IMG/VR virus record: IMGVR_UViG_3300028920_000023
DNA: 64,000 nt
Reading direction: 5' to 3' (one strand)
Source of the DNA: a virus
Taxonomy: Duplodnaviria; Caudoviricetes
Under the pieces are notes generated by a model, which was not told where the DNA came from, ran no database searches, and worked only from the letters and a program-made list of their open reading frames with translations. This document shows positions 11,462 through 41,108 of the stretch, one piece after another (position 1 is the first letter of the stretch; the number at the start of each line of letters is the position of its first letter). The translations under genes were made by a program, and so were the position numbers.

Positions 11462-12244
11462 TTAGAGATCCAAGATTCGCGAACCGATCGAAGCAAAAGC
11501 ACCCACAACCTGCCTACTGACAGAAGATTTACCCATCTTCTTTTCGACTTCCTCTACCAAATCATCACTTTTCTTCTCATCAAAATCCAAAATCCGCTTC
11601 GGATGCTGAATATTCACAGCCGAAACCCTATTAGGTCCGGAATCCAGATCGAGAACACGAGCACTCTTCGCAAAAGTATCGATCGCAATGACCTGGCGAA
11701 CGGACTCAGCCAATCTCTTAACAAAATTACGCACACCAGCAGCAAAACCCGAACTGGTCTGATAAGAGGAAGAGAAACCGAGATCAGAATCGAGATCAGA
11801 CAACGTCCTAGTCTCATTCTTGGATAAAACAAGATGAGTTCTTTCTCTAGTCCAAGAATTCATTATCTCCACATAGATATGATCTGTGGGATTATAACCA
11901 GGAAGCTCAACAAGCCTATTATCCTCAAGACGTACAAACAAAGTCCGCACAATCTTGTTCTGATGGCCGATATCATCAGCCGTCTGCTTCTCCTCCTTAT
12001 ATTGCTTATCGTCTACAAGCTGATACCTCTTCCCAGCTTTGTCTTTCGTCTTATCTGCAATTTTCTTCTGTATAAAGCGCGCAGCAGCATCATGAGTACC
12101 GAATCTCTTGGTCTGTTCAGAAATATTAGAACCAATTCTGCCCCATTTAATCTCGACAGTCGTATCGTCTATGAACTTGTAACTCCACAGCTTATTGCTG
12201 TTAGAGTCCTTGCTGATGTACCGAATCTCTTTCCCTATATCCAT
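11462..12244 (-). CDS. WGR-domain protein
   Basis: N-terminal SNKLW...VEIKWGRIG...A.RF..KKI.DK; ends in RILDL. Confidence 0.8.
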   Translation of the reverse strand: MDIGKEIRYISKDSNSNKLWSYKFIDDTTVEIKWGRIGSNISEQTKRFGTHDAAARFIQKKIADKTKDKAGKRYQLVDDKQYKEEKQTADDIGHQNKIVRTLFVRLEDNRLVELPGYNPTDHIYVEIMNSWTRERTHLVLSKNETRTLSDLDSDLGFSSSYQTSSGFAAGVRNFVKRLAESVRQVIAIDTFAKSARVLDLDSGPNRVSAVNIQHPKRILDFDEKKSDDLVEEVEKKMGKSSVSRQVVGAFASIGSRILDL

Positions 12245-12269
12245 TTGCTACCTCCTACTCGGGGTTAAT

Positions 12270-12292
12270 TCAGCAGAGATTACCTCTGCTGA
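12270..12292. terminator. intergenic hairpin
   Basis: TCAGCAGAG-attac-CTCTGCTGA. Confidence 0.5.
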
Positions 12293-12303
12293 TTCGGAAC
12301 TCC

Positions 12304-13227
12304 TCAGTCTAAATCAAGCTTCCTGCCATGACCCAAGATACTCTCGCGGGCCTTGTCCAAACTGGACCTGAGATCATCAACACCCCCTGCAATCAGGTGC
12401 TCATAAGAGCCAATACGGGCTTTGATCTTGGCGATCTCCTCTAGCTTATTCTTGAGCCATTTATCACCAACATCTTTATTCCCGGAAGTGACTTCCGAGA
12501 TCTTCTTCTCCAAGTTCTCCAAAGAGGACTGGAATTCCGTAGAAGCTGCATTGCCTACAACTTCCTGAGCGTGGGCCACATTCGGCATCGGGAAGAAAGA
12601 CAGATAATTGCCCCCACCCAAAGTGCCCAAGAATTCGGCCAAATTCCGCACAGTCTGCTCGTAAGCAGCAGGCACGAAATACACACAGCCTTGATCCCGC
12701 AAGGACACGATATCCGCGTTCTCTCGAAGAATCGATTTGATATATCGCGTCACATCAGAAGAAGAATACGTAACTTTCTGAGCACCAAATTCCTCAACGA
12801 CCCGATCTTTGATCTCGGAAACCGAGCAAGTGACAGCAGCCGAGAAATCCTTCGTCTCACGATAACGCTGCTTATCCACCAAGAAACTGGCTTCCCGACT
12901 ATAAGACAACTCCGCCTCAGCGCCAGTACCGTTCTTCAGTTCCGCTGTGAACTGATAATTCATAAAGCGATCATCCTCATCTGCCAAACGGATAATACGC
13001 TGTTCCTCCATAGCACGAAGAGAACGAGTAAGGGCACTCCTATAATTGTGTTCCCGAGCGTATTTCTCATCAAAACCACAACTCACAAGAGCCTGTTTGA
13101 ACTCCTCTTGGGTGATGTTCACGTTCCGGACATTCCACCAGATCATATAACCAAGGATCTGGAAGTCTTGATCACCCTCAACGAACTGACCCATCAAAAG
13201 ATTCTGAGCTACTTGCGTTTCTGTCAT
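12304..13227 (-). CDS. DUF6744/DUF3150-like phage protein
   Basis: LGYMIWW N-terminal motif, GCVYFVP, C-terminal coiled coil; ends in RKLDLD. Family assignment from memory. Confidence 0.55.
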   Translation of the reverse strand: MTETQVAQNLLMGQFVEGDQDFQILGYMIWWNVRNVNITQEEFKQALVSCGFDEKYAREHNYRSALTRSLRAMEEQRIIRLADEDDRFMNYQFTAELKNGTGAEAELSYSREASFLVDKQRYRETKDFSAAVTCSVSEIKDRVVEEFGAQKVTYSSSDVTRYIKSILRENADIVSLRDQGCVYFVPAAYEQTVRNLAEFLGTLGGGNYLSFFPMPNVAHAQEVVGNAASTEFQSSLENLEKKISEVTSGNKDVGDKWLKNKLEEIAKIKARIGSYEHLIAGGVDDLRSSLDKARESILGHGRKLDLD

Positions 13228-13264
13228 AAATCCTCCTTTGGCTAGAAGCCGAACCTGAAAATCC

Positions 13265-13633
13265 CTATTTGATCACGCTATTGGGCGGAGAAACCGGCAA
13301 ATGCTCGGGATGTCTTTTTGCCAAATCCCTCAGAGCATCAGAAACCATCTGGTTAAAATACCCAGAATTGGCAACGAAATCATAGGAGGAGATATACGAG
13401 CAATTGCCCAGATAAGACGTCTCCTCATCAACGACCCTGTTACGGTCCTTAAGCTGAGCAGTAACCGTGGCTGTACACCAGCCCCACCCGCCCTTAGCGA
13501 TTTTCATCACCTTGCGGACTGCTTCAGCATAACCTTCACAGGAACTTGTTCTTCTCTCGGATTGCTCCGGAGTCTCATGTTCCTTCACATTGTCGACTAC
13601 GATCACAAGTTTCATGGCTTCTCCTTTGGTCAA
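13265..13633 (-). CDS. hypothetical protein
   Basis: 122-aa ORF. Confidence 0.6.
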   Translation of the reverse strand: MTKGEAMKLVIVVDNVKEHETPEQSERRTSSCEGYAEAVRKVMKIAKGGWGWCTATVTAQLKDRNRVVDEETSYLGNCSYISSYDFVANSGYFNQMVSDALRDLAKRHPEHLPVSPPNSVIK

Positions 13634-13635
13634 TA

Positions 13636-13660
13636 GGAGGGCAAGGACTTCTTGCCCTCC
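13636..13660. terminator. intergenic hairpin after the AAA gene
   Basis: GGAGGGCAAG-gactt-CTTGCCCTCC, perfect 10-bp stem. Confidence 0.6.
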
Positions 13661-13675
13661 TTCCCAAATCGTCCG

Positions 13676-15331
13676 CTACAGATCCAAAATCCGAGCGTAA
13701 TTCCTAGCCACTGTCTTCTTGACAGTCGATGCTGGGACTGCATGGGTCTTAGCCCATTCAGCCATTTTCTTGAGATTATCGGCTTGGGACTTACTCAGGG
13801 GCGTCGTGTTCTGCACCGCGTGCATAATGTGCAAAACATCCAGATCCACATCCTTTCCGGACTCGATCTTCTGATTATAGGCGGAAAGCAAAGCAGACTT
13901 AACAGCCTCCTCGATCTCCGAACCAGAGAAACCTTTAGTCGAGGAAACCAGTTCTTTCCACCCAGTGGGGTCTTTCTTCTTGAGTACCTCGGGGTCACGC
14001 CCCTTCTTCCTGATATGGATCTCCAAGATCTCCTCACGCGCCGCATCATCCGGCTGATCCACGAAGAAGATCTCATCGAACCGACCCTTTCGGGTAAGCT
14101 CAGGGGGAAGACCTTCAATGTTATTGACCGTAGCGATGATGAAGGAACTGCCGCTACGCTCCTGCATCCAGGTCAGCAACGTACCAAACACCCTCTGAGA
14201 GACGCCAGAATCACCAGAACTCTGGCCGACACCACCAAGCACCTTCTCGACCTCATCCAGCCAAACCACCGAGTCGCCAATAGCGTCGATAGTGCTCAGC
14301 GCATTCCGCATATTGTCCTCAGATGCCCCCACAAGACCCTGGAATACCTTGGCAATATCGAATCGGACCAAAGGAACCTGCATCTCCGTTGCTGCAGCCT
14401 TTGCCGACAAGCTCTTTCCACAGCCCGGAAGACCCACAAGGACAATACCTTTGGGTTTGTCCACGCCAAAAGCTGCAGCCTCTTTACTGTAGCAGAGCCT
14501 CCGACGATTGAGCCAAGCCTTAAGGACATCCAAACCACCAATATCCCGGGACAACTGCTTGATATCCCAGAATTCCAAGATACCAGACTTCTTGATAGTC
14601 TTGGCTTTCTCCTTCATAACCAGCTCAGCGATGGTCGGAACCGCCTCCTGGTCATCCGTTTTAGCCTCCTTCAGCTCCTTCAGCAGAGTGGACCGGACGA
14701 TCGCCGCCTTGGCAAAGGCATTGGACGCCTCCATCAGAGTCAAACCAACCGCAGCCTCACCAATCTTGTCATGATCGTCTTCCTTTAGATCAGAGAAACT
14801 ATCGGGCTGCTGATTGTAGATCTCCTCCTTCCACTGGGTTTTGAGCTGCTCCTGTCGGGGAAGGCTATATTCCACCAAATGCAGATCACGTTCGATCTCC
14901 GGCGGGATTTTGCGCACTGGACTAACGAGAATCAGCGAATGCTTCACACTCTTGAAGCACCTCGAGATATCCCGTAGCAACCGCAGAACCACCGGGTTAT
15001 TGAAGTGCAGATGAAGATCACGGAAGATGAAAAGCTTGCGCTTCACATCCATGTTCTTGTCGACGACAACATTCTTTGCCTCGGAATAGATCTTCCCGAG
15101 AGCATTCGCAGCCAGCATCGTCTGTTTTGCTTGCTTGTCCGAGATCCAGTCGGTGACTTTGTCTACTGGATGAAGACCCTCTGAGCAACTCCAGACCTGG
15201 AATTGTTCGCCCGTGAGGTTGTAGTAACTGGCGATTTCATGACATGCCAGTTCTGCTCGGAACTCCTCGAGGCAGTGCAGATAGATGACGGGAAATCCAG
15301 CCCGTACGTAGGGTATAAGCGATGACGACAT
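13676..15331 (-). CDS. Ycf46-like AAA+ ATPase
   Basis: Degenerate first AAA domain (DLHLHF); second domain with IGGLD.LK.WL, GLPGCGKS, DEVEK, PPELTRKGRFDEIFFVD. Start set from AGGAGG spacing; ends in RILDL. Confidence 0.92.
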   Translation of the reverse strand: MSSSLIPYVRAGFPVIYLHCLEEFRAELACHEIASYYNLTGEQFQVWSCSEGLHPVDKVTDWISDKQAKQTMLAANALGKIYSEAKNVVVDKNMDVKRKLFIFRDLHLHFNNPVVLRLLRDISRCFKSVKHSLILVSPVRKIPPEIERDLHLVEYSLPRQEQLKTQWKEEIYNQQPDSFSDLKEDDHDKIGEAAVGLTLMEASNAFAKAAIVRSTLLKELKEAKTDDQEAVPTIAELVMKEKAKTIKKSGILEFWDIKQLSRDIGGLDVLKAWLNRRRLCYSKEAAAFGVDKPKGIVLVGLPGCGKSLSAKAAATEMQVPLVRFDIAKVFQGLVGASEDNMRNALSTIDAIGDSVVWLDEVEKVLGGVGQSSGDSGVSQRVFGTLLTWMQERSGSSFIIATVNNIEGLPPELTRKGRFDEIFFVDQPDDAAREEILEIHIRKKGRDPEVLKKKDPTGWKELVSSTKGFSGSEIEEAVKSALLSAYNQKIESGKDVDLDVLHIMHAVQNTTPLSKSQADNLKKMAEWAKTHAVPASTVKKTVARNYARILDL

Positions 15332-15454
15332 GTTCATCCTCCTGTGGCAAATTGGGCAGACACGCACGCGCCGCCCATACCACCATCGTGGCATGTGGCT
15401 TTGTCCGGCGTCCGTATCAGCTTGATTAAAGAAAGAAAGGTGCTTCTTTGAAAA

Positions 15455-15787
15455 CTACGAAATGTCAGACTTGTCAATGAAACGAAGCAAACCAAGATAA
15501 GAAAAACGAGACCGCACTATCTCGCTCTTGGTAAAAGACCTACAACCACACTCATAAACATCAGGCAGACTAGAAGCCGCACCAGCTACAACCTTAACGG
15601 CCTCAGGCAAAGTAAAACCCTCACCAACCTTCTTCCTAGTAACAAAATCAAGAAGCCACCTCTCAGCCCTCCTGAAAGAAGGCTGCGCATTGCAAAATAT
15701 CAAATCCAATTCTTCACCAATGACCGGGTTAATCTTCCCGATCTCTTCAATTACATCCATGACAAACCCCAATCTAACTCTTACCAA
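15455..15787 (-). CDS. hypothetical protein
   Basis: 110-aa ORF. Confidence 0.55.
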   Translation of the reverse strand: MVRVRLGFVMDVIEEIGKINPVIGEELDLIFCNAQPSFRRAERWLLDFVTRKKVGEGFTLPEAVKVVAGAASSLPDVYECGCRSFTKSEIVRSRFSYLGLLRFIDKSDIS

Positions 15788-16610
15788 GGAGAATCGGCTC
15801 CCTACTTCGCCGAATTTCCTCGTATTCGCTACTTATTGGACCAATAGAATCATTAAGATAAGCAATGATCTTATCGGCAGTTTTGAGACGTTTACCAGCA
15901 ACCACCATACTTACATCCTCGCCCCACCTCAGCGTGGCCATACGCCCACCGACATCTACTTTCGCCACAGCTACATCCCCCTCACGCTTGATGCCGGTGT
16001 AATCAGCAGCAACATAACTCTCGCTAAGATGCCTAAATATAACCTCATTGAAAAGCAACTCATACAGAAGCAACGCCCTCTCCATAAATTTAGATTTAGG
16101 AAAATTCCCCTCTTTCAACAGAGTTCTAAGGATTTCCTCTACCCTCCCACGACTATCGCCATAATAACTAGCACCAAGAATATCCGCAATAACGGACTCT
16201 CTCAGAGACTCAGAATTAGGATCAGCTAACTCATAGCTGATACCCTTATGCCGGAAACAAGCATCCTTGTAAACAAACCTGCTGGACGGGAACTCCCAGC
16301 GGCAAACGCCATGGGGATGCCGGTGCAGAACTACTTCCAACTCACCGTTACTCCCATTACTGCTTAACTTAATCTTGAAAGCACTACCGAATATATCCTT
16401 CAGGAACTTTCGGACAAGCCCCATATTGTCCCTAGCTTTGGATTTAGGGAGCTTCTGGGGTTTGGTCTTTCTCTTGCTAAGAAGCGAAATCTGATCGATA
16501 CCGACAGCCGCCCCATTCCTTGTCTTGATGTACCTATAGAGATCCATATTATCATGATCTCCAGGCACTTCGATTTCCAAGCAGACCTTGAACTTCGAGT
16601 AATTCCCCAT
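15774..16610 (-). CDS. hypothetical protein
   Basis: 278-aa ORF with SD. Confidence 0.7.
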   Translation of the reverse strand: MGNYSKFKVCLEIEVPGDHDNMDLYRYIKTRNGAAVGIDQISLLSKRKTKPQKLPKSKARDNMGLVRKFLKDIFGSAFKIKLSSNGSNGELEVVLHRHPHGVCRWEFPSSRFVYKDACFRHKGISYELADPNSESLRESVIADILGASYYGDSRGRVEEILRTLLKEGNFPKSKFMERALLLYELLFNEVIFRHLSESYVAADYTGIKREGDVAVAKVDVGGRMATLRWGEDVSMVVAGKRLKTADKIIAYLNDSIGPISSEYEEIRRSREPILLGKS

Positions 16611-16624
16611 AAAATTCTCCTATC

Positions 16625-16831
16625 TCAGATCAACTCGCCACAAACTGGACAACTACGAGGTTTGATGACTAAACCTCGTCGTTTAGCTTCAGCATTGCAG
16701 ATCTCATTCTCCTCTTCAGTGCACTCGTGCCACCTGCCACCAAACAAACACGACCACTTGTCGTGTCCAGTAGGAGAACCAACCCCAATACACACATCAA
16801 CAAGACCAAACCTCGGCAGTGAAATCCTCAT
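16625..16831 (-). CDS. small Cys-rich hypothetical protein
   Basis: 68 aa ending in CPVC. Confidence 0.55.
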   Translation of the reverse strand: MRISLPRFGLVDVCIGVGSPTGHDKWSCLFGGRWHECTEEENEICNAEAKRRGLVIKPRSCPVCGELI

Positions 16832-16839
16832 GTTCTCTC

Positions 16840-17487
16840 CTAAACAATATCCCGACCATCAAAACCTGAGCGCCACTTCAGTTTCAGCATGTGGCCGCTC
16901 TTCTTGGCACCAGCAGGATCGCCCAAAAGACGCCCCGTGGAGCGCTTCAGAACAATGCCCTCCGTGTACGGCAATTCCTTCTGCGCATTATAGAAATCCA
17001 AAAACCCAGAATCTACAGTTTCCGGAGTCCTCAAATTCGAAAGACCATCAATACACGGAAGAACCGCAAACCGCTCAGAAGCGCCACGATCGCCAACATA
17101 CTGGTCAGCAATATAAATCGAATCAATCAAATAGAGGCACTCGGGAAAACCAAGATCATCCGTACGGCGCTTCATCCATTCGCAAACGAGGATAGTCTTA
17201 TTCGGCAGACCCAGAGACCGCACATCGGACACCATATCGCCAGAAACCGGGATTTCCGTCGGACCACCCTTCTTCATATCTCTTCTAGAAAGGAAATATA
17301 GCCCGTTGCTCCTATCCCAGGCAGGATCACCGACACCAAGAGAGGAGATATCGTCATCGACAACGAGGTAACAACACCAGCCGTCTAGCTTCTGTTGTGC
17401 GAAGTATGTCGATTTTTGCTCGTACTCTGGGAGTTGTTCTTCTGCACCAAAAATCTCGATCGGTTTATCTGCGTACCTCCAGTTCAT
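16840..17487 (-). CDS. ATP-dependent ligase-type nucleotidyltransferase (catalytic core only)
   Basis: Motif I QKLDG, III VCEW, IIIa YLID, IV EGIVLK, V LKLK; no room for an OB domain. Confidence 0.8.
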   Translation of the reverse strand: MNWRYADKPIEIFGAEEQLPEYEQKSTYFAQQKLDGWCCYLVVDDDISSLGVGDPAWDRSNGLYFLSRRDMKKGGPTEIPVSGDMVSDVRSLGLPNKTILVCEWMKRRTDDLGFPECLYLIDSIYIADQYVGDRGASERFAVLPCIDGLSNLRTPETVDSGFLDFYNAQKELPYTEGIVLKRSTGRLLGDPAGAKKSGHMLKLKWRSGFDGRDIV

Positions 17488-17834
17488 TTTTTACTCCTTT
17501 CGACTACTTTAAATGCGAGTTCATGGGCTTCTGGTAACGGAAGCTTGACAAATTTTGCAAGGTTTTCTGGCTTCAGTGCTTTGCAGACTTGTTGTAAGAT
17601 CTGCGCACTAAAGAAATCTAGAAGAACAGCTCCTTCCTCCTCTTCCTGTTCTAATCGTTTACCAGTTACCGGGTCAACAAGTGCATATTGCTTATTTCGC
17701 ACAACCCAATCTACCGCATCAGTCCAATCCAATGTCTGCCTCCTTGTCGCTCTCTGCAGCGAGTTTCTCCCCTCTTTCCCTTGCGTCTCTATCCCTATCG
17801 GCAGTCGTGCGCCTATCCACACAAACCACATCAT
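17484..17834 (-). CDS. hypothetical protein
   Basis: 116 aa; overlap-coupled to the next gene. Confidence 0.6.
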   Translation of the reverse strand: MMWFVWIGARLPIGIETQGKEGRNSLQRATRRQTLDWTDAVDWVVRNKQYALVDPVTGKRLEQEEEEGAVLLDFFSAQILQQVCKALKPENLAKFVKLPLPEAHELAFKVVERSKK

Positions 17835-17843
17835 TTACCCTAA

Positions 17844-18269
17844 TCACACTAGCCCACTCTCATCCCGAGCAACCTGGATGTTGAGGTGGGGATACTTGTG
17901 AACATAAAAGCAGGCCATACCCTCGTCATGGTGAAGACCATCATGATGGCCTAGATCCTTGATGATCGAGAACGTCTCACAATGCGGGTAAACATCCACA
18001 TAACAAACACCCCTAATATTCATTACCTTAAAGCAGATACTTGGCGGGAGGCCCTTCTTGGCCTCTACGCCTGTATCTCCGATCTTGAGATCTGCATCGA
18101 AGGTTTTTAGAAGATTATAGATGGAGTGTGCCCAGCCGTCTAGGTCGCCAGGATTAATTTCTACGAAGTTGATCTCCATTTTCTCGATCAATTCCTCGAA
18201 GACGTCTCCATGGTCTGAGGGGTCTTTAACTTCTCTATGGATTATGTGCATTGTTTCTCCTTCTCTCAA
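17844..18269 (-). CDS. hypothetical protein
   Basis: 141-aa ORF; start may be 18251. Confidence 0.65.
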   Translation of the reverse strand: MREGETMHIIHREVKDPSDHGDVFEELIEKMEINFVEINPGDLDGWAHSIYNLLKTFDADLKIGDTGVEAKKGLPPSICFKVMNIRGVCYVDVYPHCETFSIIKDLGHHDGLHHDEGMACFYVHKYPHLNIQVARDESGLV

Positions 18270-18295
18270 TGTGCAAAACTACCCTGGGGGATACG

Positions 18296-18892
18296 ATGCC
18301 AAAAATCAAAAGAATCCACTTCTACCATATACCAAGGACCGGTGGACATAGCGTTTACAAGTTCTATCCCAGAATAAGAAAATTCGGCATCCAAATGCCG
18401 AATAACGGTCATACGCCATATCAGGATTACAATATTCCAAGCTTCATATTCCTAAGGAACCCAGCTATGCACTCGTTCTCAAGCTACCATTATATCCGTG
18501 AGCACAAAACACATAAGCTACATAACGAAATGCTCCGCAAGAGCTTCACCCAAATACTCAGAGAAGGACAGCCCCTAGACAGGTTCTGCGGCTTCCTAGG
18601 CAGGGGTGCAAAAACACCAAAAGAAAGATTAGAGAGAGCAAAAAGGAATATAGACAAAATCACCTTCGTAGGGTTCACAGAACGGTTCGACGAGGACATG
18701 AACATCTTCCTCCGGGATATTTTGGGCGTCCCCCTACGATACAACAGAGCCGTGGTAAATTCTAGCAACGTCTACAAAAAGAAATTAAGACCAAGCCCCA
18801 CAGACATCAAACTGCTGAAGGAACTACGCGCAGACGACTACGAACTAGTAAGATATGTAATGAAGAAAAGAAACGTAAGAATCCCACTGTAG
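18296..18892 (+). CDS. sulfotransferase (Sulfotransfer_2-like)
   Basis: 5'-PSB-like FYHIPRTGGHSV, 3'-PB-like FLRNP...SFSSY, FVGFTERFDED, DYEL. Confidence 0.85.
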   Translation: MPKIKRIHFYHIPRTGGHSVYKFYPRIRKFGIQMPNNGHTPYQDYNIPSFIFLRNPAMHSFSSYHYIREHKTHKLHNEMLRKSFTQILREGQPLDRFCGFLGRGAKTPKERLERAKRNIDKITFVGFTERFDEDMNIFLRDILGVPLRYNRAVVNSSNVYKKKLRPSPTDIKLLKELRADDYELVRYVMKKRNVRIPL

Positions 18893-18894
18893 AC

Positions 18895-18938
18895 GAAATG
18901 CCGACCAAAAACGGTCATTTGCCTTTGGTCGGCATTTC
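18895..18938. terminator. bidirectional terminator-like hairpin between convergent genes
   Basis: GAAATGCCGACCAAA / TTTGGTCGGCATTTC, perfect 15-bp stem. Confidence 0.75.
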
Positions 18939-18956
18939 ATCACCCCCATCAGGTCT

Positions 18957-24836: not shown

Positions 24837-26045
24837 CTATTCCTCATCGAACATATCAGCAAGTTCGCTCAGAGCAGATTTCCTCTGCTTCAGCTCCGTA
24901 CTCTGCTTAGATAGTTCCCCATCCTTATTGAGCTTCAATGCTCCTTTCTTAAACCCCTGCAGATACAGGGGTAACTCCACAGGCTTATCAAACAAATTCT
25001 CAGCCACCAACCTATTCAGACGAAGAACATCAGCACCCTCACCGATACAGCGCCATTCCCCGTCCTGAAGAAGAAACTGACAACGAGGGTTGGCTACCTT
25101 CGTATAGGTGAACCGGGTCTGCGAAGATTGCACCATCATAGCAACTTTGTCAGGGTTCTCCGGATCCTTCCGGAGAACCCGACCAGCCATCTGCGTCGTA
25201 GGGAGCTTACAACTGTCCCTAACCCATGAGGTCTGCAAATACGGCGCATCAAACCCCTCAGTCAACAGATGGATATTAGCCAGAACCTGCACCGAATCAG
25301 AGCAATGAGGTCGACCCATCCGATATTCCCTCGACCACGTCTCGTGGGCCTCGAACAGGTCATCACGCTCACTCTCCGACAATTTACCATGCATAAACGC
25401 ACAACTCACGCCACCCTTCTCGAGTATAGAGATATATTCTCGACAAAGAGCCTCATTCTGGAAATAAATAACCGAGCTTCCCCATTTCTCCGGATCCATA
25501 AGCAAAGCATCAGCTGTGGACCGAGGAGTCCACTCCGGTAGAACATACTGGTCGAATTGGCTCAGATAACCCTGGTCGATGAGGAAACGTACACCGCAGT
25601 CCTTGATGATTTTGTTATAGCCAAGCTTCACACGGTCCGTCCTAAAAGGAGTCGCCGTAAGACCTATAGAATAGGTGGAGCCAGCCAGCTCGTGTATATT
25701 GGCGCAAGAAGAAGCAGCGTCGTGCTGTGCTTCGTCTGTTAGCACCAGATCTGCCTTCGGTGGATTCTTGTCGAACATGCTTACGAACGAGATATCTCTA
25801 ACGCCGATAGACTCGTTCTCTTCCCTTGCTTGAGCTAGCAGCTTCCTGCGCATGGCGACCCAAACAAAGCGCATAGAGGGATCGTGTTGCTTGAGTTTGT
25901 ACAGGATCTTTAGAGCCATTATTGTCTTGCCGGACCCAGTTGGGCTCTCTATGAGGATAGACTTGCTGTCGCCGGAGGCGATACAGTCAAATGCTTTTTC
26001 GACTATACGCTTCTGGTATGGTCTATCCTCCAAGACTCTCGCCAT
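24837..26045 (-). CDS. SF2 DEAD/DEAH-box helicase
   Basis: ESPTGSGKT, DEAQH, LTAT, LTEGFDAP, QMAGRVLR. Confidence 0.92.
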   Translation of the reverse strand: MARVLEDRPYQKRIVEKAFDCIASGDSKSILIESPTGSGKTIMALKILYKLKQHDPSMRFVWVAMRRKLLAQAREENESIGVRDISFVSMFDKNPPKADLVLTDEAQHDAASSCANIHELAGSTYSIGLTATPFRTDRVKLGYNKIIKDCGVRFLIDQGYLSQFDQYVLPEWTPRSTADALLMDPEKWGSSVIYFQNEALCREYISILEKGGVSCAFMHGKLSESERDDLFEAHETWSREYRMGRPHCSDSVQVLANIHLLTEGFDAPYLQTSWVRDSCKLPTTQMAGRVLRKDPENPDKVAMMVQSSQTRFTYTKVANPRCQFLLQDGEWRCIGEGADVLRLNRLVAENLFDKPVELPLYLQGFKKGALKLNKDGELSKQSTELKQRKSALSELADMFDEE

Positions 26046-33122: not shown

Positions 33123-33217
33123 TATCACCGCAGAAATAAGTAATCCAGAAGTCATAAAAGAGCCTCCAGCACACAACTTTCAACACCATAAAAAAGAGGT
33201 ACTATGCACATTGTGAG

Positions 33218-33277: not shown

Positions 33278-36172
33278 ACCTATGCACTCCTCTTTTTTGC
33301 ACCCGTTCTATGTTTTGGCACAGAAGAAGCCCTACTCAACACAGACGCCACCACAGACACAGACAAACACGACTGGCGCATCCACGCAGACACCAACCAA
33401 CAAGGCCTCTGGCACGCCATCTGGTATCGCACCAAACCAGACAACACAATCAGCATCCTAAAAGCCAAAAGCACCGACAACGGATACACCTGGAACACAC
33501 CAACAGTCCTAAGCCAAAACAGCATCGCAGACGCCAAACACACATCACCCAAAATAGCCACAGACAAACAAGGCCTCTGGGTAGCCACCTGGATGACAAA
33601 CGACAACCAACAAGGACGCAAAACCTCCTACAACATAGCCATACGCACAAGCACAAACAACGGAGAAACCTGGACCAAAACCAAAATCATCGGAACAAAC
33701 TCCTGCAAAGACCCAGACATCAAAATACACAACGGAACAATACTAATAGCCTGGGACTACTGGGACGGCAACAAAACCAACATCGCATATAGAACCAGCA
33801 CAAACGGAAGCACCTGGAGCAACACAACAATCTTCAACCACGACGGAGACGACAGCAACGTCAACATAGAAGCACACAACAGCACCTGGGCCATAACCTG
33901 GAGCAAAACCTACACAATCGGATCATACAAACAATCAGACATCTTCCTAACCCACAGCACAGACCTACAAAACTGGACAACACCACAAAAAATCAACAAC
34001 GGCAAAACAGGACAACAAAGCTACGACATCTACCCAAAAATCGAAACAAACGGAAACAAGTGGGTAGTCATCTGGAACGGCAAAAACACACTCAACAACG
34101 CCGGAACAGACTACGACATCATCAGCACAACCAGCACAGACCTACAAAACTGGACAACACCAACCGTTGTCAACAGCAACGGCACAACAGACAACAGATC
34201 AGACGAAGACCAGCAAATCGTCTACAACCAAGGAATTTGGACAGCAGTATGGTCCGGCTCCAATAACGTAGACATCAACGACATGGACGTCTACTACGCC
34301 ACAAGCACAGACGGACAAAACTGGGGGCCAAGGCAAGCCCTCAAATCAAACACCTACACAGATCCAACCTGGGTCGACGACGAAGCACCAAACATCTTCA
34401 CAGACGGAACTGGCTGGCTAATTGCCTGGACCTCCGAAGACAACAGAGACAACTGCGAAGCAGACAGAGACCTCTTCTACACCGTCAGCACAGACGGACA
34501 AAACTGGAACACCACACCACCAGCACCCCTAATCGCACAAGACGACCAATACACAACACAAGAAGACCAAAGCATACACAACAGCGTACTAACCAACGAC
34601 AACCCAGAAATATCATCAAGATCATTAGTCGCAAAACGAACCACCCTAAACGCCACACTAAACTCGCCACCCTCACATGGAACACTAGACTTCCATGCCG
34701 ACGGAACATTCACATACCAGCCAGACACCGGATACAATGGACAAGACACCTTCACATACACCGCCACAGACGGGATAAGAATATCCAACGAAGCCACAGC
34801 GCACATCACCGTACAGCCCATCAACGCCATAATACCAACCGCCATAATACAAGCCAGCCTCTGGAATATCCAGGTCGGTGATGATGTAGGATTCGATGGT
34901 AGCCATTCAGAAGATATCGACGGGGAAATTATAGAACACCTGTGGGATTTCGGAGATGGAACCATCATGGTAGGTGAGATACTAACTCACAAGTATAACA
35001 ACCCAGGCAATTATGAAGTCACACTCACAGTAACAGACAACGAAGGACTAACCGATAACGATACAATCATTATTATAGTAGAAAAAACAGAAGAAGGCAA
35101 CGATAAATTCGATATCGACGACGGCAAAATAACACCAAAAGACACATATATCGTCACAGCCAAAGTACTTGGAGCAGCCATCGAGATACCAGGACAATAC
35201 GAACTCATGGTCACAACCAGAATCAAGATCGGGGACGAAATCTTCGAATGCTGGGGAGACTGGAACAATGCGACCGAATCCAACGTGAACGACCATCAAG
35301 TGCATACCTGGACATCCGATAGAGAATTCGACATGCTCCCAATCTCCGCACAGGGGAAATCCTGGAAGAAGTACGGACAGAGCTGGAGACCCTTTATAAC
35401 AGTAGACTCAGAAACAAAACCTCAAATGGTCAAAATACTCAAGAATGGAGACACAATCCCAAATCTCTTGCCCTGGAACAACCAGAGCAATATAGAGGAT
35501 TTCATACAAGGCTTTCTGGATCTAGAGACGAATACCATCACACTGAACGAGAACGAAGCGATTTTCCTTTTCGAACTGGGTACAACCGACCCACACAGCG
35601 CCGCAGCCGATTACCAAGACCTCGTTGTCCTAATCTCCCTCGGGGAACCAGAACCCACACCAGAACCCACACCAGAACCCACACCAGAACCCACACCAGA
35701 ACCCACACCAGAACCCACACCAGAACCCACACCAGAAGCCAGAAAACCAGGATTTAAGCAGCTAAAATACAGAACAGTCTGGGATAAAGACAATCAAGAC
35801 CAATTCATGCTTAAAATGATAGACTTCGACGGACAGAACGGAGACCAAATAACAATAACCGTAGGCAAAAACACCTGGACAATCGAACTAGGGAAAGGAA
35901 ACGCACACAAAGACAACAATATAAGAGCCAAAGTGACCTCAAGCAACATGCTAATGTTCAAATGCGTGAGAGGAAACTTTGAAGACAACCTAGACTACAG
36001 ATCAAAGAAACAAAAGAAAGGAACAATGACACTGCCCATCACTGTCAATATAAACGAATCAACATTCAATTATAAAATCGACGTCGATTACAAAGTAAAA
36101 TCCAGGAAGAAAGAAGAATTCTCAATCTTCGGAAAGGACCTACGCAAAAGAAGAAAAACTAACCGTTTCTAA
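33269..36172 (+). CDS. large exported-type multidomain protein (signal peptide, Asp-box beta-propeller, Ig/cadherin-like, PKD, PEPT linker)
   Basis: Hydrophobic N-terminus; S-x-D/N-x-G-x-x-W Asp boxes; AQDDQY...GTL...DGTFTY.P; FDGS.S.D.DG.I...WDFGDG; (PEPT)7. Confidence 0.85.
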   Translation: MRCTYALLFFAPVLCFGTEEALLNTDATTDTDKHDWRIHADTNQQGLWHAIWYRTKPDNTISILKAKSTDNGYTWNTPTVLSQNSIADAKHTSPKIATDKQGLWVATWMTNDNQQGRKTSYNIAIRTSTNNGETWTKTKIIGTNSCKDPDIKIHNGTILIAWDYWDGNKTNIAYRTSTNGSTWSNTTIFNHDGDDSNVNIEAHNSTWAITWSKTYTIGSYKQSDIFLTHSTDLQNWTTPQKINNGKTGQQSYDIYPKIETNGNKWVVIWNGKNTLNNAGTDYDIISTTSTDLQNWTTPTVVNSNGTTDNRSDEDQQIVYNQGIWTAVWSGSNNVDINDMDVYYATSTDGQNWGPRQALKSNTYTDPTWVDDEAPNIFTDGTGWLIAWTSEDNRDNCEADRDLFYTVSTDGQNWNTTPPAPLIAQDDQYTTQEDQSIHNSVLTNDNPEISSRSLVAKRTTLNATLNSPPSHGTLDFHADGTFTYQPDTGYNGQDTFTYTATDGIRISNEATAHITVQPINAIIPTAIIQASLWNIQVGDDVGFDGSHSEDIDGEIIEHLWDFGDGTIMVGEILTHKYNNPGNYEVTLTVTDNEGLTDNDTIIIIVEKTEEGNDKFDIDDGKITPKDTYIVTAKVLGAAIEIPGQYELMVTTRIKIGDEIFECWGDWNNATESNVNDHQVHTWTSDREFDMLPISAQGKSWKKYGQSWRPFITVDSETKPQMVKILKNGDTIPNLLPWNNQSNIEDFIQGFLDLETNTITLNENEAIFLFELGTTDPHSAAADYQDLVVLISLGEPEPTPEPTPEPTPEPTPEPTPEPTPEPTPEARKPGFKQLKYRTVWDKDNQDQFMLKMIDFDGQNGDQITITVGKNTWTIELGKGNAHKDNNIRAKVTSSNMLMFKCVRGNFEDNLDYRSKKQKKGTMTLPITVNINESTFNYKIDVDYKVKSRKKEEFSIFGKDLRKRRKTNRF
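35648..35737 (+). repeat. 12-bp coding tandem repeat (PEPT)7
   Basis: CCAGAACCCACA x7, all identical. Confidence 0.95.
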
Positions 36173-36509
36173 TCCTTTCACTCAAATACTCGACCTCCTG
36201 TCTAATCCGCTGATCCGTCTCAACAGCATGGCCCATCCTGCGAACAACATAATGGACCGAAGAATGATCACGATCACAAAAAAACTGACCAATCTCAGAC
36301 AAACTATGATCAGTCAACTCCCTACATAAATAAATCGCAAAATGCCTAGCCCTAACAGCCGTAACATGCCTCCGATGCGAACGAACGACATCCCTGTCGA
36401 TATTATATCTAGAAGCAACAACACCAACTATCTCCGACATCGACAAAATGCTACCAACCTCCCTATCTGGGGACCACCTACCGCACCAGGGGCATCTCAT
36501 CATGACCAC
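36159..36509 (-). CDS. stand-alone DnaA domain IV (DnaA-box-binding HTH) protein
   Basis: I...VA..Y.I....V.S.RR...VRARHFAIYLCRELTDHSLSEIGQFF..RDHSSV; N-terminal CPWC; no AAA domain. Confidence 0.88.
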   Translation of the reverse strand: MVMMRCPWCGRWSPDREVGSILSMSEIVGVVASRYNIDRDVVRSHRRHVTAVRARHFAIYLCRELTDHSLSEIGQFFCDRDHSSVHYVVRRMGHAVETDQRIRQEVEYLSERIRNG

Positions 36510-36892
36510 CCATCAAAACCAACAGAACCGTATTCCACACGTGTACAAAAGACCGACAGGCTGTAGCTTGTGCTCTGCAAAACGAAGTCGATTCGGTAGT
36601 ACCTGTCCTGGTCCCGGATGATGTCCCCTCTGGTCGGTGGTATCGTCAGATTGATGAATTTCCTATCGTCATTCTTTCTGTTGCTGATCAGCAGATTCGC
36701 TCTAAGCCCCTTTAGACTTTCCTCTAGGCCGTCACAAATGTCCAGAATTCGGTCATGCTCGTAATCATCGAATTGTGTTACGACGATACTGCCGTCTCTG
36801 ATGTGTAGATCCGGTGCTGGTTCCCAACCGACATCACCTTTAAAGCTAAGGCATGATATTGCTCTTACTTCGTTGCTCTTGTGTATCTGCAC
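36500..36892 (-). CDS. hypothetical protein
   Basis: 130-aa ORF with SD. Confidence 0.6.
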   Translation of the reverse strand: MQIHKSNEVRAISCLSFKGDVGWEPAPDLHIRDGSIVVTQFDDYEHDRILDICDGLEESLKGLRANLLISNRKNDDRKFINLTIPPTRGDIIRDQDRYYRIDFVLQSTSYSLSVFCTRVEYGSVGFDGWS

Positions 36893-36993
36893 TTTGTGTT
36901 CTCCCTTTTCCCCGTCCTATCGCTCCATATGCGATTAGGAAGTAGAGCGCCAAAAACATATATCTTCGATATCGCCTGCGTAAAGCTATCCAT

Positions 36994-37001
36994 CAAAGAT
37001 A
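36994..37001 (+). promoter_or_regulatory. putative phage late promoter CAAAGATA
   Basis: 24 nt upstream of the ATG at 37026. Confidence 0.6.
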
Positions 37002-37025
37002 CCATAAGACAAGGAGACAATACTG

Positions 37026-39299
37026 ATGGAACTGAGTGAAAAACTAGATCGCGTGTTTGGTCTAAAGCAAGTATTCGTTGAAGAAAATCAAGTATTAGAC
37101 GCCAACAAATGGCAAGCAGCAGACCCAGACCACCTAAACAAATTAGCTTTCTCTAAAAGCACAGGAGCACGAATGAACGCGCTCCTGAGAATCTTACGCG
37201 ATCTAGGCGAATACGACCTATTAAACACAATCAAAAAATATGACTCAGAAAATCCAAATTCAAGAAATCTAGCTTATGAGCTATACAAGCAAGCACGCAA
37301 AGAAGCACGCAAAGAAGCCAACAAAAGAGCTGCCATAGACCCCACCAGACGCGGCAAAGTCTTACGCAGAAGAGAAGCAGAAGCGCCAGCAGCTGGTATA
37401 GAGAAATCCCCAGAATCCAAACTGGTGGACCTGGCCCAAGCACGAGAAAAACCAGACAGAGAAAGACCAGACGATTATCGTTGGGCAATCATGGATGTAG
37501 ACACCGGAGAATATGCCAAAGACGACCAAGGCCACGCCATAACCGCAGAAACAGAAGACGACGCCCAAGCCCTAATCGACGGCGAAGTCGATATGTTCCC
37601 AGACCCGGACCAGTACACACCTAAAAGAATTGAAAACCCCAAATCACTAAAAGCACTAAGTAAAATCGTTAAACCACTACAGAATGGTTGGACTATGGAC
37701 GAAGTAGTCAAAGCGCTCATGCCTTATATCAGAAGTTTATCATGGAAATTCAGAAATGAAAAAGCAGACTTCGACGACCTAACTCAGACAGGCGCATTAG
37801 CCGTACACAACGCTATAGAAACAGACAAAGGCATAGCGCCATTCGCATGGCACGCCTATCCGCATGTCAAAGGGGCAATCATGAACACCGCCCTACGTGG
37901 TGGCGTAGTGTCCGGAGGAGAAAGAACATTCCGGCAAAAAGGACCAATCTCCGGATATACCATACTCTGGCGAGAACCAGAAGACAACCCAGACGAAGAA
38001 CCTAGATCAATTCACTTCGGCAGTAAAGAAATGACCGGAGCTCAATATGGGGGAACAGCTAGAGCAGAAGCGGGAAAAGGCGGAAGATCCGACCCCGGTC
38101 TAGAAAAAGCAAAACAGATGCAAGACCGACTCCGCGAAAGAGGTATCATCTCAGCCATCCGACCAGAACGACAAAGACTGGCGTCAATGGCATCCAAACT
38201 AAAAGGATCAGAAGGACAAACCGAACTTGGCGATACAGTCAAAGCAACCAAAGTAGCATCCCCAGAATTCATAACCCAACAGCAAGAATTATTCAATATG
38301 CTTATGGATAAAGCAGAATTGAATGATAAAGAAAAAGAAGTAATGAGAATGGCCTATGGACTCGATGTACCAGAAGCAGGACTTAGAGGCCCCTCCTACA
38401 GCGGAAGAGACCAAGGCGTCTTCGGTCCACCCGAATCAGGTGAAAAAGAAAGAAAACCGGGAGAACAATGGGGCATACCCTCGCCAACTGCCCAAGGCAA
38501 GCTCCTCAGACGCCATGCAGGCGAACTCGAAGGAGAACCCGAAGCAAGAGGGCCAGTAGAAATATCCGATATCCTGGGAATGCCGCGTAGCACCGTAAAA
38601 CGAAATTTCCAATCCGGTAGTAAGAAGCTGTACAAAGCAAGAGACGAACTATACAAACAATACCCGCATCTGCGACCCTTCATGAACAAAGCCTTTGGGA
38701 AGAAAAAAGCAGAAGAACCAGTAGGGAAGCCAACAAAGAAAGCCGCAAGGAAACCAAAGCCCGCAACAGTACCGGCTGCAGCGCCAGGGCAATACGACCA
38801 AGAAACGCTAGACTGGGCTCAAAAACACGGCTTCCCGCCAGAACAAGCCGCAATAATGATGCAAGCATTACGTAGCGCAGGAAAATTAGATGATAGCTTA
38901 GACAGAATCTTCGATGGGGAACTAGATCAACTGGACGAGCGATTTGGGCGAAAAGAAGTACCAAACATCAAAGCAACAAACTATTATTGCGCACGATGTG
39001 GGGAAACTACAAGACACTCCCTCAGAGGAGATAAATCGACCTGCGAAAAATGTGGAGCCATAAAAAGCAAAGTAACAGAAAGCCAAGCAGTATACGAAGC
39101 CAACATCATGTACCGTACATTCCTTAAAGCAACAAGGAAAATACGTAAAGCAGCCATAGAAGAAATAGACGAAAGATCAAAGCACATCCTAGAAGGAATA
39201 GACGAGCAAGAAATCAAAAACCTCTTAGAAATAGAAGACATCTGCAGACAACACCTGATAAAAGCAATCGTCTCCGGAGATTACAACGACATCGTCTAA
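37026..39299 (+). CDS. giant sigma-70-like factor (757 aa), paralogue of 5093..7051
   Basis: Region 2-like DDLTQTGALAVHNAIETDKGIAPFAWHAYPHVKGAI; region 3.2/4.1-like TELGDTV...SPE...LNDKEKEVMRMAYGL; HTH EISDILGMPRSTVKR. Confidence 0.75.
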   Translation: MELSEKLDRVFGLKQVFVEENQVLDANKWQAADPDHLNKLAFSKSTGARMNALLRILRDLGEYDLLNTIKKYDSENPNSRNLAYELYKQARKEARKEANKRAAIDPTRRGKVLRRREAEAPAAGIEKSPESKLVDLAQAREKPDRERPDDYRWAIMDVDTGEYAKDDQGHAITAETEDDAQALIDGEVDMFPDPDQYTPKRIENPKSLKALSKIVKPLQNGWTMDEVVKALMPYIRSLSWKFRNEKADFDDLTQTGALAVHNAIETDKGIAPFAWHAYPHVKGAIMNTALRGGVVSGGERTFRQKGPISGYTILWREPEDNPDEEPRSIHFGSKEMTGAQYGGTARAEAGKGGRSDPGLEKAKQMQDRLRERGIISAIRPERQRLASMASKLKGSEGQTELGDTVKATKVASPEFITQQQELFNMLMDKAELNDKEKEVMRMAYGLDVPEAGLRGPSYSGRDQGVFGPPESGEKERKPGEQWGIPSPTAQGKLLRRHAGELEGEPEARGPVEISDILGMPRSTVKRNFQSGSKKLYKARDELYKQYPHLRPFMNKAFGKKKAEEPVGKPTKKAARKPKPATVPAAAPGQYDQETLDWAQKHGFPPEQAAIMMQALRSAGKLDDSLDRIFDGELDQLDERFGRKEVPNIKATNYYCARCGETTRHSLRGDKSTCEKCGAIKSKVTESQAVYEANIMYRTFLKATRKIRKAAIEEIDERSKHILEGIDEQEIKNLLEIEDICRQHLIKAIVSGDYNDIV

Positions 39300-39673
39300 G
39301 TTTCCTCGGAGGAAACCTCATCATCAAACTCGACAGAACGACGCTGCAACTCTAAAATATCAGGCTCTTTTTCGGCCAGTCTCTCATTACCAAGAGACTG
39401 GCCTTTCTCTATCCACTCGTCTTTCTCAAGTATGGACTCCACACGGTTCTCGTCTAGAAATATCCACTCCACTTCACTAAATGTTCCACAGACCCTCTCG
39501 TGGACATTCTTGAAGAAACCCTGGAATGATGGTATCTGCCGGCCTTTGTTATCGCGAACCACAACGATCCCAGAGTGATAAAGAACGACCTTTACGACGT
39601 TTCGATATGACATTATGAACACACTCCTCAGATATCGGCCTAAACGAATCATCCGAATGGTAAATACCCTCAC
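39296..39673 (-). CDS. hypothetical protein
   Basis: Overlaps the next ORF; start may be 39613. Confidence 0.5.
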   Translation of the reverse strand: MRVFTIRMIRLGRYLRSVFIMSYRNVVKVVLYHSGIVVVRDNKGRQIPSFQGFFKNVHERVCGTFSEVEWIFLDENRVESILEKDEWIEKGQSLGNERLAEKEPDILELQRRSVEFDDEVSSEET

Positions 39674-40805
39674 CGAGATCTAGAGCAATATCGCTGACAT
39701 CCATATCCTCAACCTCGGACCCAGCAGCATCCTCAATCTCTTCATCATCTGGAAATTCATCATCAACGTCAATATCTGTATCTTCTATCTCATCCTCAGG
39801 CTGAGTACCGTAGTCCTGAGCAGGTTCCTCGATAGGTTCTTGTTGTTTATACCTATTCGAATTACCATCGAGCATATAATCTGCCATTTTCTGGATGAAA
39901 CTAGCTGCATCTTCGCCTTCTGGCACATCTAGACGACCTTTGTCCAAAATCTTGTCATCCCTCCACAACTGCGCCATATAACGCCCCGGAACCATATTGA
40001 CCGGACGAAATCTCAACTTAAAACCATCTGACCTCTCGAAACCAATATCCTTCTTGTTCGGCAATTCCAAAGACGACCAAGAAGGAATCTCCGGACCAGT
40101 CTCTTCATCACCCAGACCACCCAGATCATCCTCCAGACCACCCAGATCATCCTCCAAATCACCTAGATCATCATCCAATTCATCATCCAATTCATCATCC
40201 ATACCTAATTCCTCATCATCGGCCTCTGTAGGGTCCTGCGAAGGAGGAGGATCACCAGCACTAGGCAGATCCTCTCCCTTGCCCCAACGATCCGGAGAAG
40301 AATAAGGATCAGAAGAAGACGGAAGGCCCTCTATAGCCTCCCTAATACCCAAGAAATCCCTCTGTAATACACCAGAAATCTCTCTGAGGCGCTCCCCAAT
40401 CTCAAGGAAATCATGGCGTTTCTCACCATCAGGATAATATCCAGCAAGCTCCATCCACTTATCAACAATACCATCCAACTGATTCTTAGCATTCTCAAGG
40501 GTATAACCACTACCTCCTGGGGTAGAACCACCATAATTCTCAGCTTCTTTGGACTGATCAGGATCTTTGATGCTTACGTCGATTTCCTCTTCTTCTCTTA
40601 TAATACCATCACTTAATCTGACCTTATCTCTTTGTAGGTTGGTATTGACCTGCTGTACGGCAACAGGCTGGTCAGGCAATGGTTCCATTCTCTGTAACCT
40701 AGAACTGGCCTTAGACATCCTGGTGTCCGAAGACAACCTCGGGTCTAAATCTTCAAGATTATCTATTTCAAGTCGCTTATCGAGTATTTTCTCTAGATTT
40801 TCCAT
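39549..40805 (-). CDS. highly acidic hypothetical protein (possible head scaffold/core)
   Basis: Long D/E tracts; AAAAGATA motif and GGAG SD upstream. Confidence 0.75.
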   Translation of the reverse strand: MENLEKILDKRLEIDNLEDLDPRLSSDTRMSKASSRLQRMEPLPDQPVAVQQVNTNLQRDKVRLSDGIIREEEEIDVSIKDPDQSKEAENYGGSTPGGSGYTLENAKNQLDGIVDKWMELAGYYPDGEKRHDFLEIGERLREISGVLQRDFLGIREAIEGLPSSSDPYSSPDRWGKGEDLPSAGDPPPSQDPTEADDEELGMDDELDDELDDDLGDLEDDLGGLEDDLGGLGDEETGPEIPSWSSLELPNKKDIGFERSDGFKLRFRPVNMVPGRYMAQLWRDDKILDKGRLDVPEGEDAASFIQKMADYMLDGNSNRYKQQEPIEEPAQDYGTQPEDEIEDTDIDVDDEFPDDEEIEDAAGSEVEDMDVSDIALDLGEGIYHSDDSFRPISEECVHNVISKRRKGRSLSLWDRCGSR

Positions 40806-40844
40806 TTACACGCTCCCGTTTCTTTATCTTTTCAGGAGCACCAC

Positions 40845-41108
40845 CTAGAGATCCAGAATACGAATATCATATTGCCCAAACCTACGAGGTTCAACCTTTG
40901 GCGTCTTCTCCTCGGTCCTAACATCCCCCTGCCCCAACCTACGCATCTCATCTAGAGCATCAGACTTAGAATAAAGCCTACCAAAGCCAGACCATCTACG
41001 CCCATCCCAATATTCCACAAAAATTGACGAACCTATCTTACGAGTTATACAAAAATGGCCCTCGACACCATCAGCGCGATCCGTAAGGAACATATCAGTC
41101 ACTTCCAT
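40845..41108 (-). CDS. small hypothetical protein ending in RILDL
   Basis: 87 aa, directly downstream of thyX. Confidence 0.6.
   Translation of the reverse strand: MEVTDMFLTDRADGVEGHFCITRKIGSSIFVEYWDGRRWSGFGRLYSKSDALDEMRRLGQGDVRTEEKTPKVEPRRFGQYDIRILDL

Follow-up and report, generated by a model that had tools for sequence, protein, structure and literature searches.

A conserved R-x-L-D-L peptide at the C-termini of unrelated proteins encoded in a giant-phage gene module around a Cdc48-like ATPase

The stretch of DNA examined here (referred to as the window) was 64,000 nt long and came from a giant phage (Caudoviricetes; IMG/VR record IMGVR_UViG_3300028920_000023). Four genes on the minus strand of the window encoded proteins that finished in the same short peptide, R-x-L-D-L. 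They were a 260-amino-acid (aa) WGR-domain protein (11462-12244; Pfam WGR, 1.7e-9) that ended ..GSRILDL*, a 307-aa DUF6744 protein of an AAA-linked subfamily (12304-13227; Pfam PF20529, 2.4e-20) that ended ..GRKLDLD*, a Ycf46-like, p97/Cdc48-like AAA+ ATPase (13676-15394; 572 aa as listed) that ended ..ARILDL*, and an orphan 87-aa protein (40845-41108) that was encoded directly downstream of thyX and ended ..IRILDL*. The tail was R-I-L-D-L at residues 256 to 260 of the WGR protein (11465-11479), R-K-L-D-L-D at residues 302 to 307 of the DUF6744 protein (12307-12324), and R-I-L-D-L at residues 568 to 572 of the AAA protein (13679-13693), where the stop codon followed at once; in the orphan gene, it was located at 40848-40862. 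Translation of the genes gave all four C-termini as claimed in the original prediction, an earlier reading of this DNA. That reading had also listed one internal motif in the WGR protein, R-V-L-D-L-D at residues 196 to 201 (11642-11659; context ARVLDLD). This copy was indeed present, but it was not the only one: R-I-L-D-F-D was found at residues 217 to 222 (11579-11596; context KRILDFD), in a phage-specific insertion.

When the tails were removed, no similarity among the four proteins was detected by BLAST. The 87-aa protein matched no Pfam or PHROG family, had no homologue in the related contig G001 (described below), and had only itself as a match among 5.8 billion proteins. A count of C-terminal R.LDL motifs against expectation, which had been proposed as a check, was carried out with a greedy gene set of 77 to 82 open reading frames (ORFs) from the window; the motif had to be no more than 1 residue from the end, and the expectation was taken from the internal frequency of the pattern. 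The result was far above chance, as four cases were observed versus 0.016 expected (P=2.6e-9), and the expectation for the looser pattern R.L[DE][LIF] was 0.048 (P=2e-7). In all six frames of the window, five stop-terminated frames ended in [RK].[LIVM][DE][LIFM][DE]?. Four of these were the tailed genes, and the fifth was a 54-codon frame inside another gene. A near-terminal RKLDL in a 159-aa protein (59144-59623) was not counted because it was not conserved in the orthologue, which had RKIRL.

The three RILDL tails had 12 of 15 coding bases in common and differed at synonymous sites, and the 30-base flanks on each side matched at 7 to 11 of 30 positions, which is the random level. An origin by chance, or a DNA-level signal (a repeat, a terminator, or a ribosome-binding site for the following gene) whose translation happens to be RILDL, was given a negligible probability. 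The sequence TGGATCT, which is common to three of the tails, would be in line with such a signal. However, the P values of about 1e-7 to 1e-9 argued against chance, the flanks were unrelated, the sequence had no Shine-Dalgarno character, and orthologues encoded the peptide with different codons and varied its middle residues. Judging from the orthologous sequences, this conservation at the level of the peptide already refuted the explanation. The original prediction had described the likeness as protein-level convergence and not DNA duplication. The random flanks and synonymous differences bore out a protein-level likeness without DNA duplication, but "convergence" was the wrong term for three of the four proteins, whose tails were inherited with a conserved gene module.

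In the WGR protein, the WGR domain was followed by a beta-rich domain in the middle and by a C-terminal region of low confidence, which held the three motif copies. In the AlphaFold2 (AF2) model, the predicted local distance difference test score (pLDDT) was <50 at residues 190 to 224 and 254 to 259, the stretches that hold all three copies. WGR orthologues ended GERELDL (P0003; 49% identity in the alignment), GERMLDL (L146), and GERMLEL (G001). The terminal tail in the four aligned orthologues was therefore RILDL, RELDL, RMLDL, or RMLEL, with G253, R255, L257, and L259 invariant, and the internal copy R-x-L-D-L-[GD] was present in all four, with R195, L197, D198, L199, and D200 invariant (alignment numbering). 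A fifth orthologue (L155) had RVLDIG internally and RVLDL at the terminus. The NAD-dependent ligA ORF, as listed with a TTG start at 11508, overlapped the last 47 bases of the WGR gene (11462-11508), including the tail codons; the real ligA start may be further downstream.

For DUF6744, 150 cluster representatives were inspected. Most of the ~35 closest (35 to 45% identity) ended in R-x-[LIM]-[DE]-[LIFV], either exactly or with one or two acidic residues or a short extension behind the motif (e.g., RKLDL, RTLDLE, RVLDIE, RALEL, RSLDL, and RILDI), and the more distant representatives among the 150 had no tail. The G001 orthologue carried DRELDLT (motif RELDL) 22 aa before its end. No informative fold relatives of DUF6744 were found in the ESM Atlas. 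Across the tails, the position before L-D-L was variable (I, K, V, T, E, S, or M), and the chain end or an Asp followed.

The AAA protein matched Pfam AAA at residues 317 to 446, together with AAA_lid_3, and matched phrog_8638 at 9e-128. Its best PDB sequence matches were the D2 domains of VAT, Cdc48, and p97. The residues G320, G323, G325, K326, S327, D379, E380, N423, R434, and R437 (Walker A/B, sensor, and Arg positions) were invariant in 57 AAA homologues. The Foldseek alignment of the AF2 model (pLDDT 88) extended over ~580 columns of the D1-D2 region of p97, Cdc48, Rix7, and AFG2, which suggested a D1-D2 type of ATPase. The N-terminal half had no Pfam AAA match, so D1 is probably degenerate. 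A Cdc48-type N domain (double-psi-barrel) was absent in the model, which began with a D1-like alpha/beta domain at about residue 20. Based on the model, the protein is a type II p97/Cdc48-like D1-D2 ATPase with a degenerate D1, an active-type D2, and no N domain. Residues 1 to 18 had a pLDDT of <50, and the true start may be about 20 codons downstream of the listed one. In the tail region, the block-mean pLDDT was ~50 (551 to 560) and ~45 (561 to 571); only residues 560 to 564 were flagged as <50.

The ~70 AAA homologues in viral contigs had a conserved last helix (LRxWAxxRARxAS), a variable linker of 15 to 30 aa, and a short tail. Tails of the R.LD[LIFM] type were found in Shida, L002, L014, L020, L028, L030, L036, L038, L051, L066, L146, L152, and L155, and the variants included RTLDF, RVLDL, RVLDI, RELDI, [KR]DLDL, KELDL, and RQLDLA. 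The tail was conserved in homologues at 30 to 40% identity, and the AAA protein of Mycobacterium phage Shida (Corndogvirus, 31% identity) ended ..KVRVLDL. Other AAA lineages had an acidic -[DE]3-4-L tail or a basic tail. Besides megaphages, cultivable phages of Mycobacterium, Rhizobium, Pseudomonas, and Rhodobacter encoded members of the family; at the DNA level, the AAA region of the window had no match among cultured phages. As for the gene itself, the AAA orthologue in G001 (L019 9956-13060; G001 116999-120103) was split by an intein with a LAGLIDADG endonuclease and was 1034 aa in total. In the huge-phage clade, a full-length IF3 gene (IF3_N and IF3_C) was located directly upstream of the AAA gene in L036 (9345-9854), with equivalents in L025, L038, L051, L063, and L066.

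Absence of the motif from orthologue C-termini had been named as an outcome that would speak against a functional tail. This was clearly not the case, as the motif was kept in the WGR, DUF6744, and AAA orthologues. The broader proposal of a short linear motif also held, since the likeness was at the protein level, was conserved in orthologues, and came after low-confidence or variable linkers. According to the structural models, the tail sits in the usual context of such a motif, which is a flexible segment outside of folded domains.

The contig G001 (IMG/VR; 246,684 bp, 91% complete, locus L019) encoded homologues of 30 of the 77 window proteins, and their order was largely kept. Five contigs, namely, the window, G001, and three independent contigs that were reached from tail-bearing DUF6744 homologues (L146, L152, and L155), shared a module of AAA, DUF6744, usually WGR, DUF1257, and DUF2997 genes. 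DUF6744 adjoined AAA in all five contigs, and the tails were on AAA, DUF6744, and, where present, WGR. In L146, the tails were RSIDI (AAA), RSLDL (DUF6744), and RMLDL (WGR); in L155, they were RTVDVD, RALDI, and RVLDL, respectively. In L152, the AAA tail was RKLDM and the DUF6744 tail was RTLDLE, and no WGR gene was found. The compact order of the module was AAA, DUF6744, (x), WGR, DUF1257, and DUF2997, with only AAA and DUF6744 in L152. In the window, the same module was spread across 8.7 to 15.4 kb and was interleaved with ligA. The DUF1257 protein of the window (8775-9236, minus strand; Pfam PF06868, 1e-5) carried no tail. DUF2997 was not found among window ORFs of at least 30 aa and was present in G001, L146, and L155. 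Searches with jackhmmer placed DUF1257 and DUF2997 beside AAA in ~25 loci, and both are annotated next to AAA in Rhizobium phage RHph_I4. This arrangement was similar to the Ycf46/Ycf35(DUF1257)/DUF2997 neighborhood of cyanobacteria and phages, as phrog_8638 is an AAA of the Ycf46 kind with the same linkage, but here the neighborhood was enlarged by DUF6744 and WGR. The literature searched described no function and no shared tail for this neighborhood.

Tail-less DUF6744 genes were found directly after a bpMoxR AAA ATPase gene in L149, L150, and L157, with a VWA protein between in L149 and L150. Thus, tail-bearing DUF6744 was accompanied by the Ycf46-like AAA in five of five contigs and tail-less DUF6744 by bpMoxR in three of three (Fisher P=0.018), in what is a small sample of eight contigs only. 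Because the tail-less members follow bpMoxR, DUF6744 seems to serve two different AAA+ systems as a partner or client.

Tails of neighboring genes also varied together. Similar-tail pairs numbered 45 within loci and 13 between loci for equal pair numbers, and "DL" was the commonest C-terminal dipeptide in AAA loci, at 5.9x expectation. In L002, two helix-hairpin-helix proteins (HhH_3) ended ERNID[IL] and the AAA ended RTLDF. In L021, L024, and L045, the DUF3150 protein after AAA ended MRGLD[IL], and the AAA had RAVDLSF near its end. The AAA of L030 had RQLDLA and the next gene RTLDLE, and in Shida, where the AAA tail was RVLDL, gp95 ended ALDFEEVV. Different tail classes behaved in the same way. 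RVIRR was found at the end of the AAA and of two downstream ORFs in L007 (8841-11869); the AAA of Rhodobacter phage RcKickapoo (L144 4671-7084) had RAVRR.. near its end, and the next gene, gp64, had RVVVRR..; and in L022, DnaB ended GDDDI and the AAA ended DEDDDL. From these endings, the tail class appears to switch in concert within a genome.

The tail was greatly expanded in megaphages. In four huge-phage contigs (219 to 548 kb), the AAA gene was located between IF3 and DnaC-like, DnaB, and primase genes, and 5 to 8 proteins per 20 kb ended R-[FWLM]-[DE]-[ILM]-L-D-L. In the complete contig G003 (547,943 bp; IMGVR_UViG_3300033145_003233, locus L038), ~40 of ~780 proteins (~5%) ended P-I-x-[SND]-R-F-[ED]-I-[LM]-D-[LI] (RFEILDL type). 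These tagged proteins formed 31 BLAST-unrelated clusters, and codon use in their tails was varied. Many were 60 to 150 aa and were encoded in tandem arrays at 136469-153110; others were found elsewhere (e.g., 407052-431181), and a dozen were around AAA, which itself ended PRDLDL. The window and G003 shared seven proteins only, of which AAA was by far the best conserved. The extended tag was detected in 6 of 2.9 million viral contigs with a DNA pattern that is biased towards AT-rich codons. In G001, four further proteins of the R-x-L-[DE]-[LI] type were found (RSLDI, RTLELEVS, RHLEL, and RQLEI), and strictly terminal cases numbered 5 versus 0.2 expected. Ten further tagged proteins of G001, L036, and L038 had no Pfam family. 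Two other observations were made at 405016-410391 of G003: the Pol III alpha gene was split into two genes (470 aa and 660 aa) with other ORFs between, and two proteins (470 aa and 110 aa) had the common ending ..ELEDDLGGVDRY.

The tail is a real, conserved, and portable C-terminal peptide of a phage module around a Cdc48-like ATPase, and it looks like a previously undescribed address tag. The original prediction had known of no description, and we likewise found none in the literature searched on these families and on shared C-terminal tags in phages. Our preferred reading, which we hold tentatively and at somewhat less than an even chance, is that R-x-L-D-L is a putative tag by which proteins dock on a co-evolving receptor within the AAA machine; the most probable receptor is the AAA ring. 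R-x-L-D-[LIF], at the free carboxylate or before Asp/Glu, would be a portable docking peptide that ends a flexible linker and couples otherwise unrelated phage proteins to one common, phage-encoded, co-evolving receptor. This receptor would be part of the machine around the Ycf46/Cdc48-like AAA+ protein; the AAA double ring is the likeliest candidate, and DUF1257 and DUF2997 are less likely ones. The tag would deliver proteins, as clients or adaptors, to the ATPase, where they would be held, remodelled, or unfolded. The clients may be DUF6744, the bi- or trivalent WGR DNA-binding protein, and the 87-aa orphan here, and helix-hairpin-helix proteins, DUF3150, and dozens of small proteins in other phages. 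The tail of the ATPase itself might also bind at this site, either in cis or from one ring to another, and act there as a competitor or tether. We infer that the tail binds at all, as well as the identity of the bound protein and the fate of the tagged proteins.

Three results point to the AAA. It was the only family common to all loci with an LDL-type AAA tail, within 10 kb (~70 viral loci), it was the best conserved of the seven proteins shared by the window and G003, and the DUF6744 pattern (a tail with the Ycf46-like AAA and none with MoxR), which is free of collection bias, points in the same direction. Several observations weigh against a receptor in the AAA machine. The constant presence of AAA is only partly independent evidence because the loci were collected through AAA, and the DUF6744 association rests on the eight contigs. 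Judging from the model, the AAA has no Cdc48-type N domain, which is the usual dock for cofactor motifs, and any receptor site on it is therefore undefined. An untagged hub would be more parsimonious than a receptor that itself bears the ligand. The AAA tail of G003, R-D-L-D-L, lacks the two hydrophobic positions of the R-F-E-I-L-D-L tags that surround it. Of the other candidate receptors, DUF1257 was lacking in the complete G003 and in Shida, while Shida and G007 had no DUF2997. Since neither occurs in every tail-bearing phage, both were rejected as a universal receptor. A complex prediction for AAA and DUF6744 gave a score of 0.00, which counts neither for nor against binding.

The C-terminal tails of Cdc48/p97 and of proteasome activators are among the nearest known parallels. 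PUB/PUL domains recognize the ..DDLYG tail of p97, and HbYX tails (on PAN, archaeal Cdc48, Bpa, and Blm10) dock in the alpha-ring pockets of the 20S proteasome. The AAA protein described here resembles p97 and Cdc48 in that it is predicted to be a D1-D2 ATPase whose flexible C-terminal tail finishes in a short conserved peptide, and in the HbYX case, unrelated proteins use one C-terminal peptide for one ring-shaped receptor. However, no R-x-L-D-L tail contained a Tyr or fit the HbYX pattern, the Cdc48 N domain was absent, and no PUB/PUL domain, proteasome, or peptidase gene was recognized in the module. In phage T7, the acidic C-terminal tails of the gp4 helicase-primase and the gp2.5 single-stranded DNA-binding protein dock on the gp5 polymerase. 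An acidic tail with a terminal hydrophobic residue is a common feature (compare -EEDL/-DDDI on the AAA and DnaB of some relatives), but R-x-L-D-L is not strongly acidic and has a conserved Arg.

Among the alternatives, the sliding clamp has the closest model in phage T4, in which gp43, gp55, and gp33 have highly similar, interchangeable hydrophobic/acidic C-termini that plug into gp45, and the gp55 epitope comes after a divergent unstructured linker (PMC2988020). If the tail were an epitope for a sliding clamp or another conserved replisome hub, AAA, WGR, DUF6744, and other proteins would ride the clamp of the host or of the phage on DNA. The tail and the T4 epitopes (S-L-D-F-L-[FY]; gp43 ends ..SLDFLFG and gp55 ends ..SLDFLYEAND) are both short hydrophobic/acidic C-terminal peptides on unrelated proteins of one phage, they have the same linker architecture (PMC2988020), and they occur in a replication or DNA-transaction setting. 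Their cores, L-D-L and L-D-F, are also similar, and an internal WGR copy is RILDFD. In addition, several tagged proteins are DNA binding (WGR, and HhH_3 in L002), the AAA gene is found in replication modules beside DnaC-like, DnaB, and primase genes and in the window beside ligA, and Shida encodes its own beta clamp. Nevertheless, we consider a clamp epitope unlikely, in particular because the polymerase of the 548-kb phage G003 ends in a different clamp-type motif: the C-terminal piece of Pol III alpha ends VDMFEDLF, and a 92-aa neighbor ends EIDMFD, which are canonical motifs of this kind and not the tag. Similarly, Pol III alpha of L040/L050 ends ..SLDLFPDDLL while the AAA ends ..EEDEEL, and in the window, which has no polymerase gene, a SNF2/ResIII-type helicase ends ..SELADMFDEE. 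The gp45- and beta-type clamp families (PF00712, PF02768, PF09116, and PF02916) had no match in G001 (91% complete) or G003 (100% complete), although a host clamp is possible. The tail lacks the Gln at position 1 and the aromatic residue at position 5 of QL[SD]LF, as well as the two hydrophobic residues that follow L-D-F in T4, and the RVIRR lineages (AAA and neighbors) do not fit a conserved clamp pocket. Furthermore, ~40 small tagged proteins in one genome are far beyond any known clamp clientele, and the one carrier that all lineages share is an AAA unfoldase rather than a polymerase. These phages seem to use two different C-terminal tags. The helicase ending (24837-26045, minus strand), which is of the beta-clamp type like VDMFEDLF and EIDMFD of G003 (in E. 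coli, a motif of this type is QADMF), was not kept in the G001 orthologue.

A C-terminal degron, recognized by the unfoldase pore or by a protease of the host (ClpXP-, Lon-, or Tsp-like), could limit how long early and replication proteins persist, and the AAA would be one of them. Bacteria are known to use C-terminal degrons of this length, such as the ssrA-type LAA signal. The tail is at or within 1 to 2 residues of the free C-terminus on a flexible linker, it is common to many small unrelated proteins in early-gene-like arrays, and the ATPase linked to it, an unfoldase of the Cdc48/p97 kind, has kept the catalytic residues of D2. We find a degron quite unlikely, however, given the conserved internal copies in WGR (R-x-L-D-L-[GD]), the extensions of 2 to 22 residues after some tails, and the change of tail class between lineages that infect similar hosts; no peptidase was recognized in the module, and an unfoldase with its own degron would need a special explanation. 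Alternatively, the tail might be a sorting signal, comparable to the peroxisomal SKL, to a phage-made compartment, the procapsid, a membrane, or export; the AAA would then act where the receptor or translocon is. A strict C-terminal consensus on ~5% of a complete 548-kb phage proteome, an extended tag that is confined to one clade (the 6 contigs noted above), and a Cdc48-like AAA that is always co-encoded would be compatible with sorting. Yet there was no sign of any compartment or translocon or of an association with virions, those tagged proteins whose domains are known are cytoplasmic and have DNA- or replication-related roles, and small phages carry only one or two tagged proteins, which makes sorting very unlikely in our view. 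The hubs named in the original prediction were a sliding clamp, a protease, and the AAA ring. The AAA ring fits best among the three, and the clamp was weakened by the other motif on Pol III alpha and by clamp genes that went undetected in the near-complete G001 and G003.

A broader version of the docking-tag reading, which we regard as rather improbable, is that large phages run a general C-terminal address-tag system in which hydrophobic-Asp-Leu peptides (R-x-L-D-L and RFEILDL) on up to ~5% of the proteome are captured, sorted, or unfolded by a Cdc48-like AAA; this would be a counterpart of PTS1/Pex or ssrA/ClpX. Some of the phage machines that are understood best, for instance the T4 clamp toolbelt and the T7 replisome, are organized by shared C-terminal docking peptides, and the present tail is a different peptide that is tied to an uncharacterized, widespread unfoldase family. 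It offers an experimental handle on the Ycf46-like AAA, DUF6744, and DUF1257/DUF2997, which are families of unknown function, and it predicts which giant-phage orphan proteins work together (~40 in one genome). If the AAA machine uses the tail to capture or sort proteins, the tail would represent a new layer of phage proteome organization and a portable engineering tag.

Outside of the module, a PHROG search with the large window proteins gave nothing. Two very large proteins of 652 and 757 aa, encoded at 5093-7051 (minus strand) and 37026-39299 (plus strand), weakly matched region 2 (and region 4) of sigma-70. The orthologue of the 757-aa protein in G001 was followed by a gene for a 292-aa protein with the tag at its end (..GVRSLDI).

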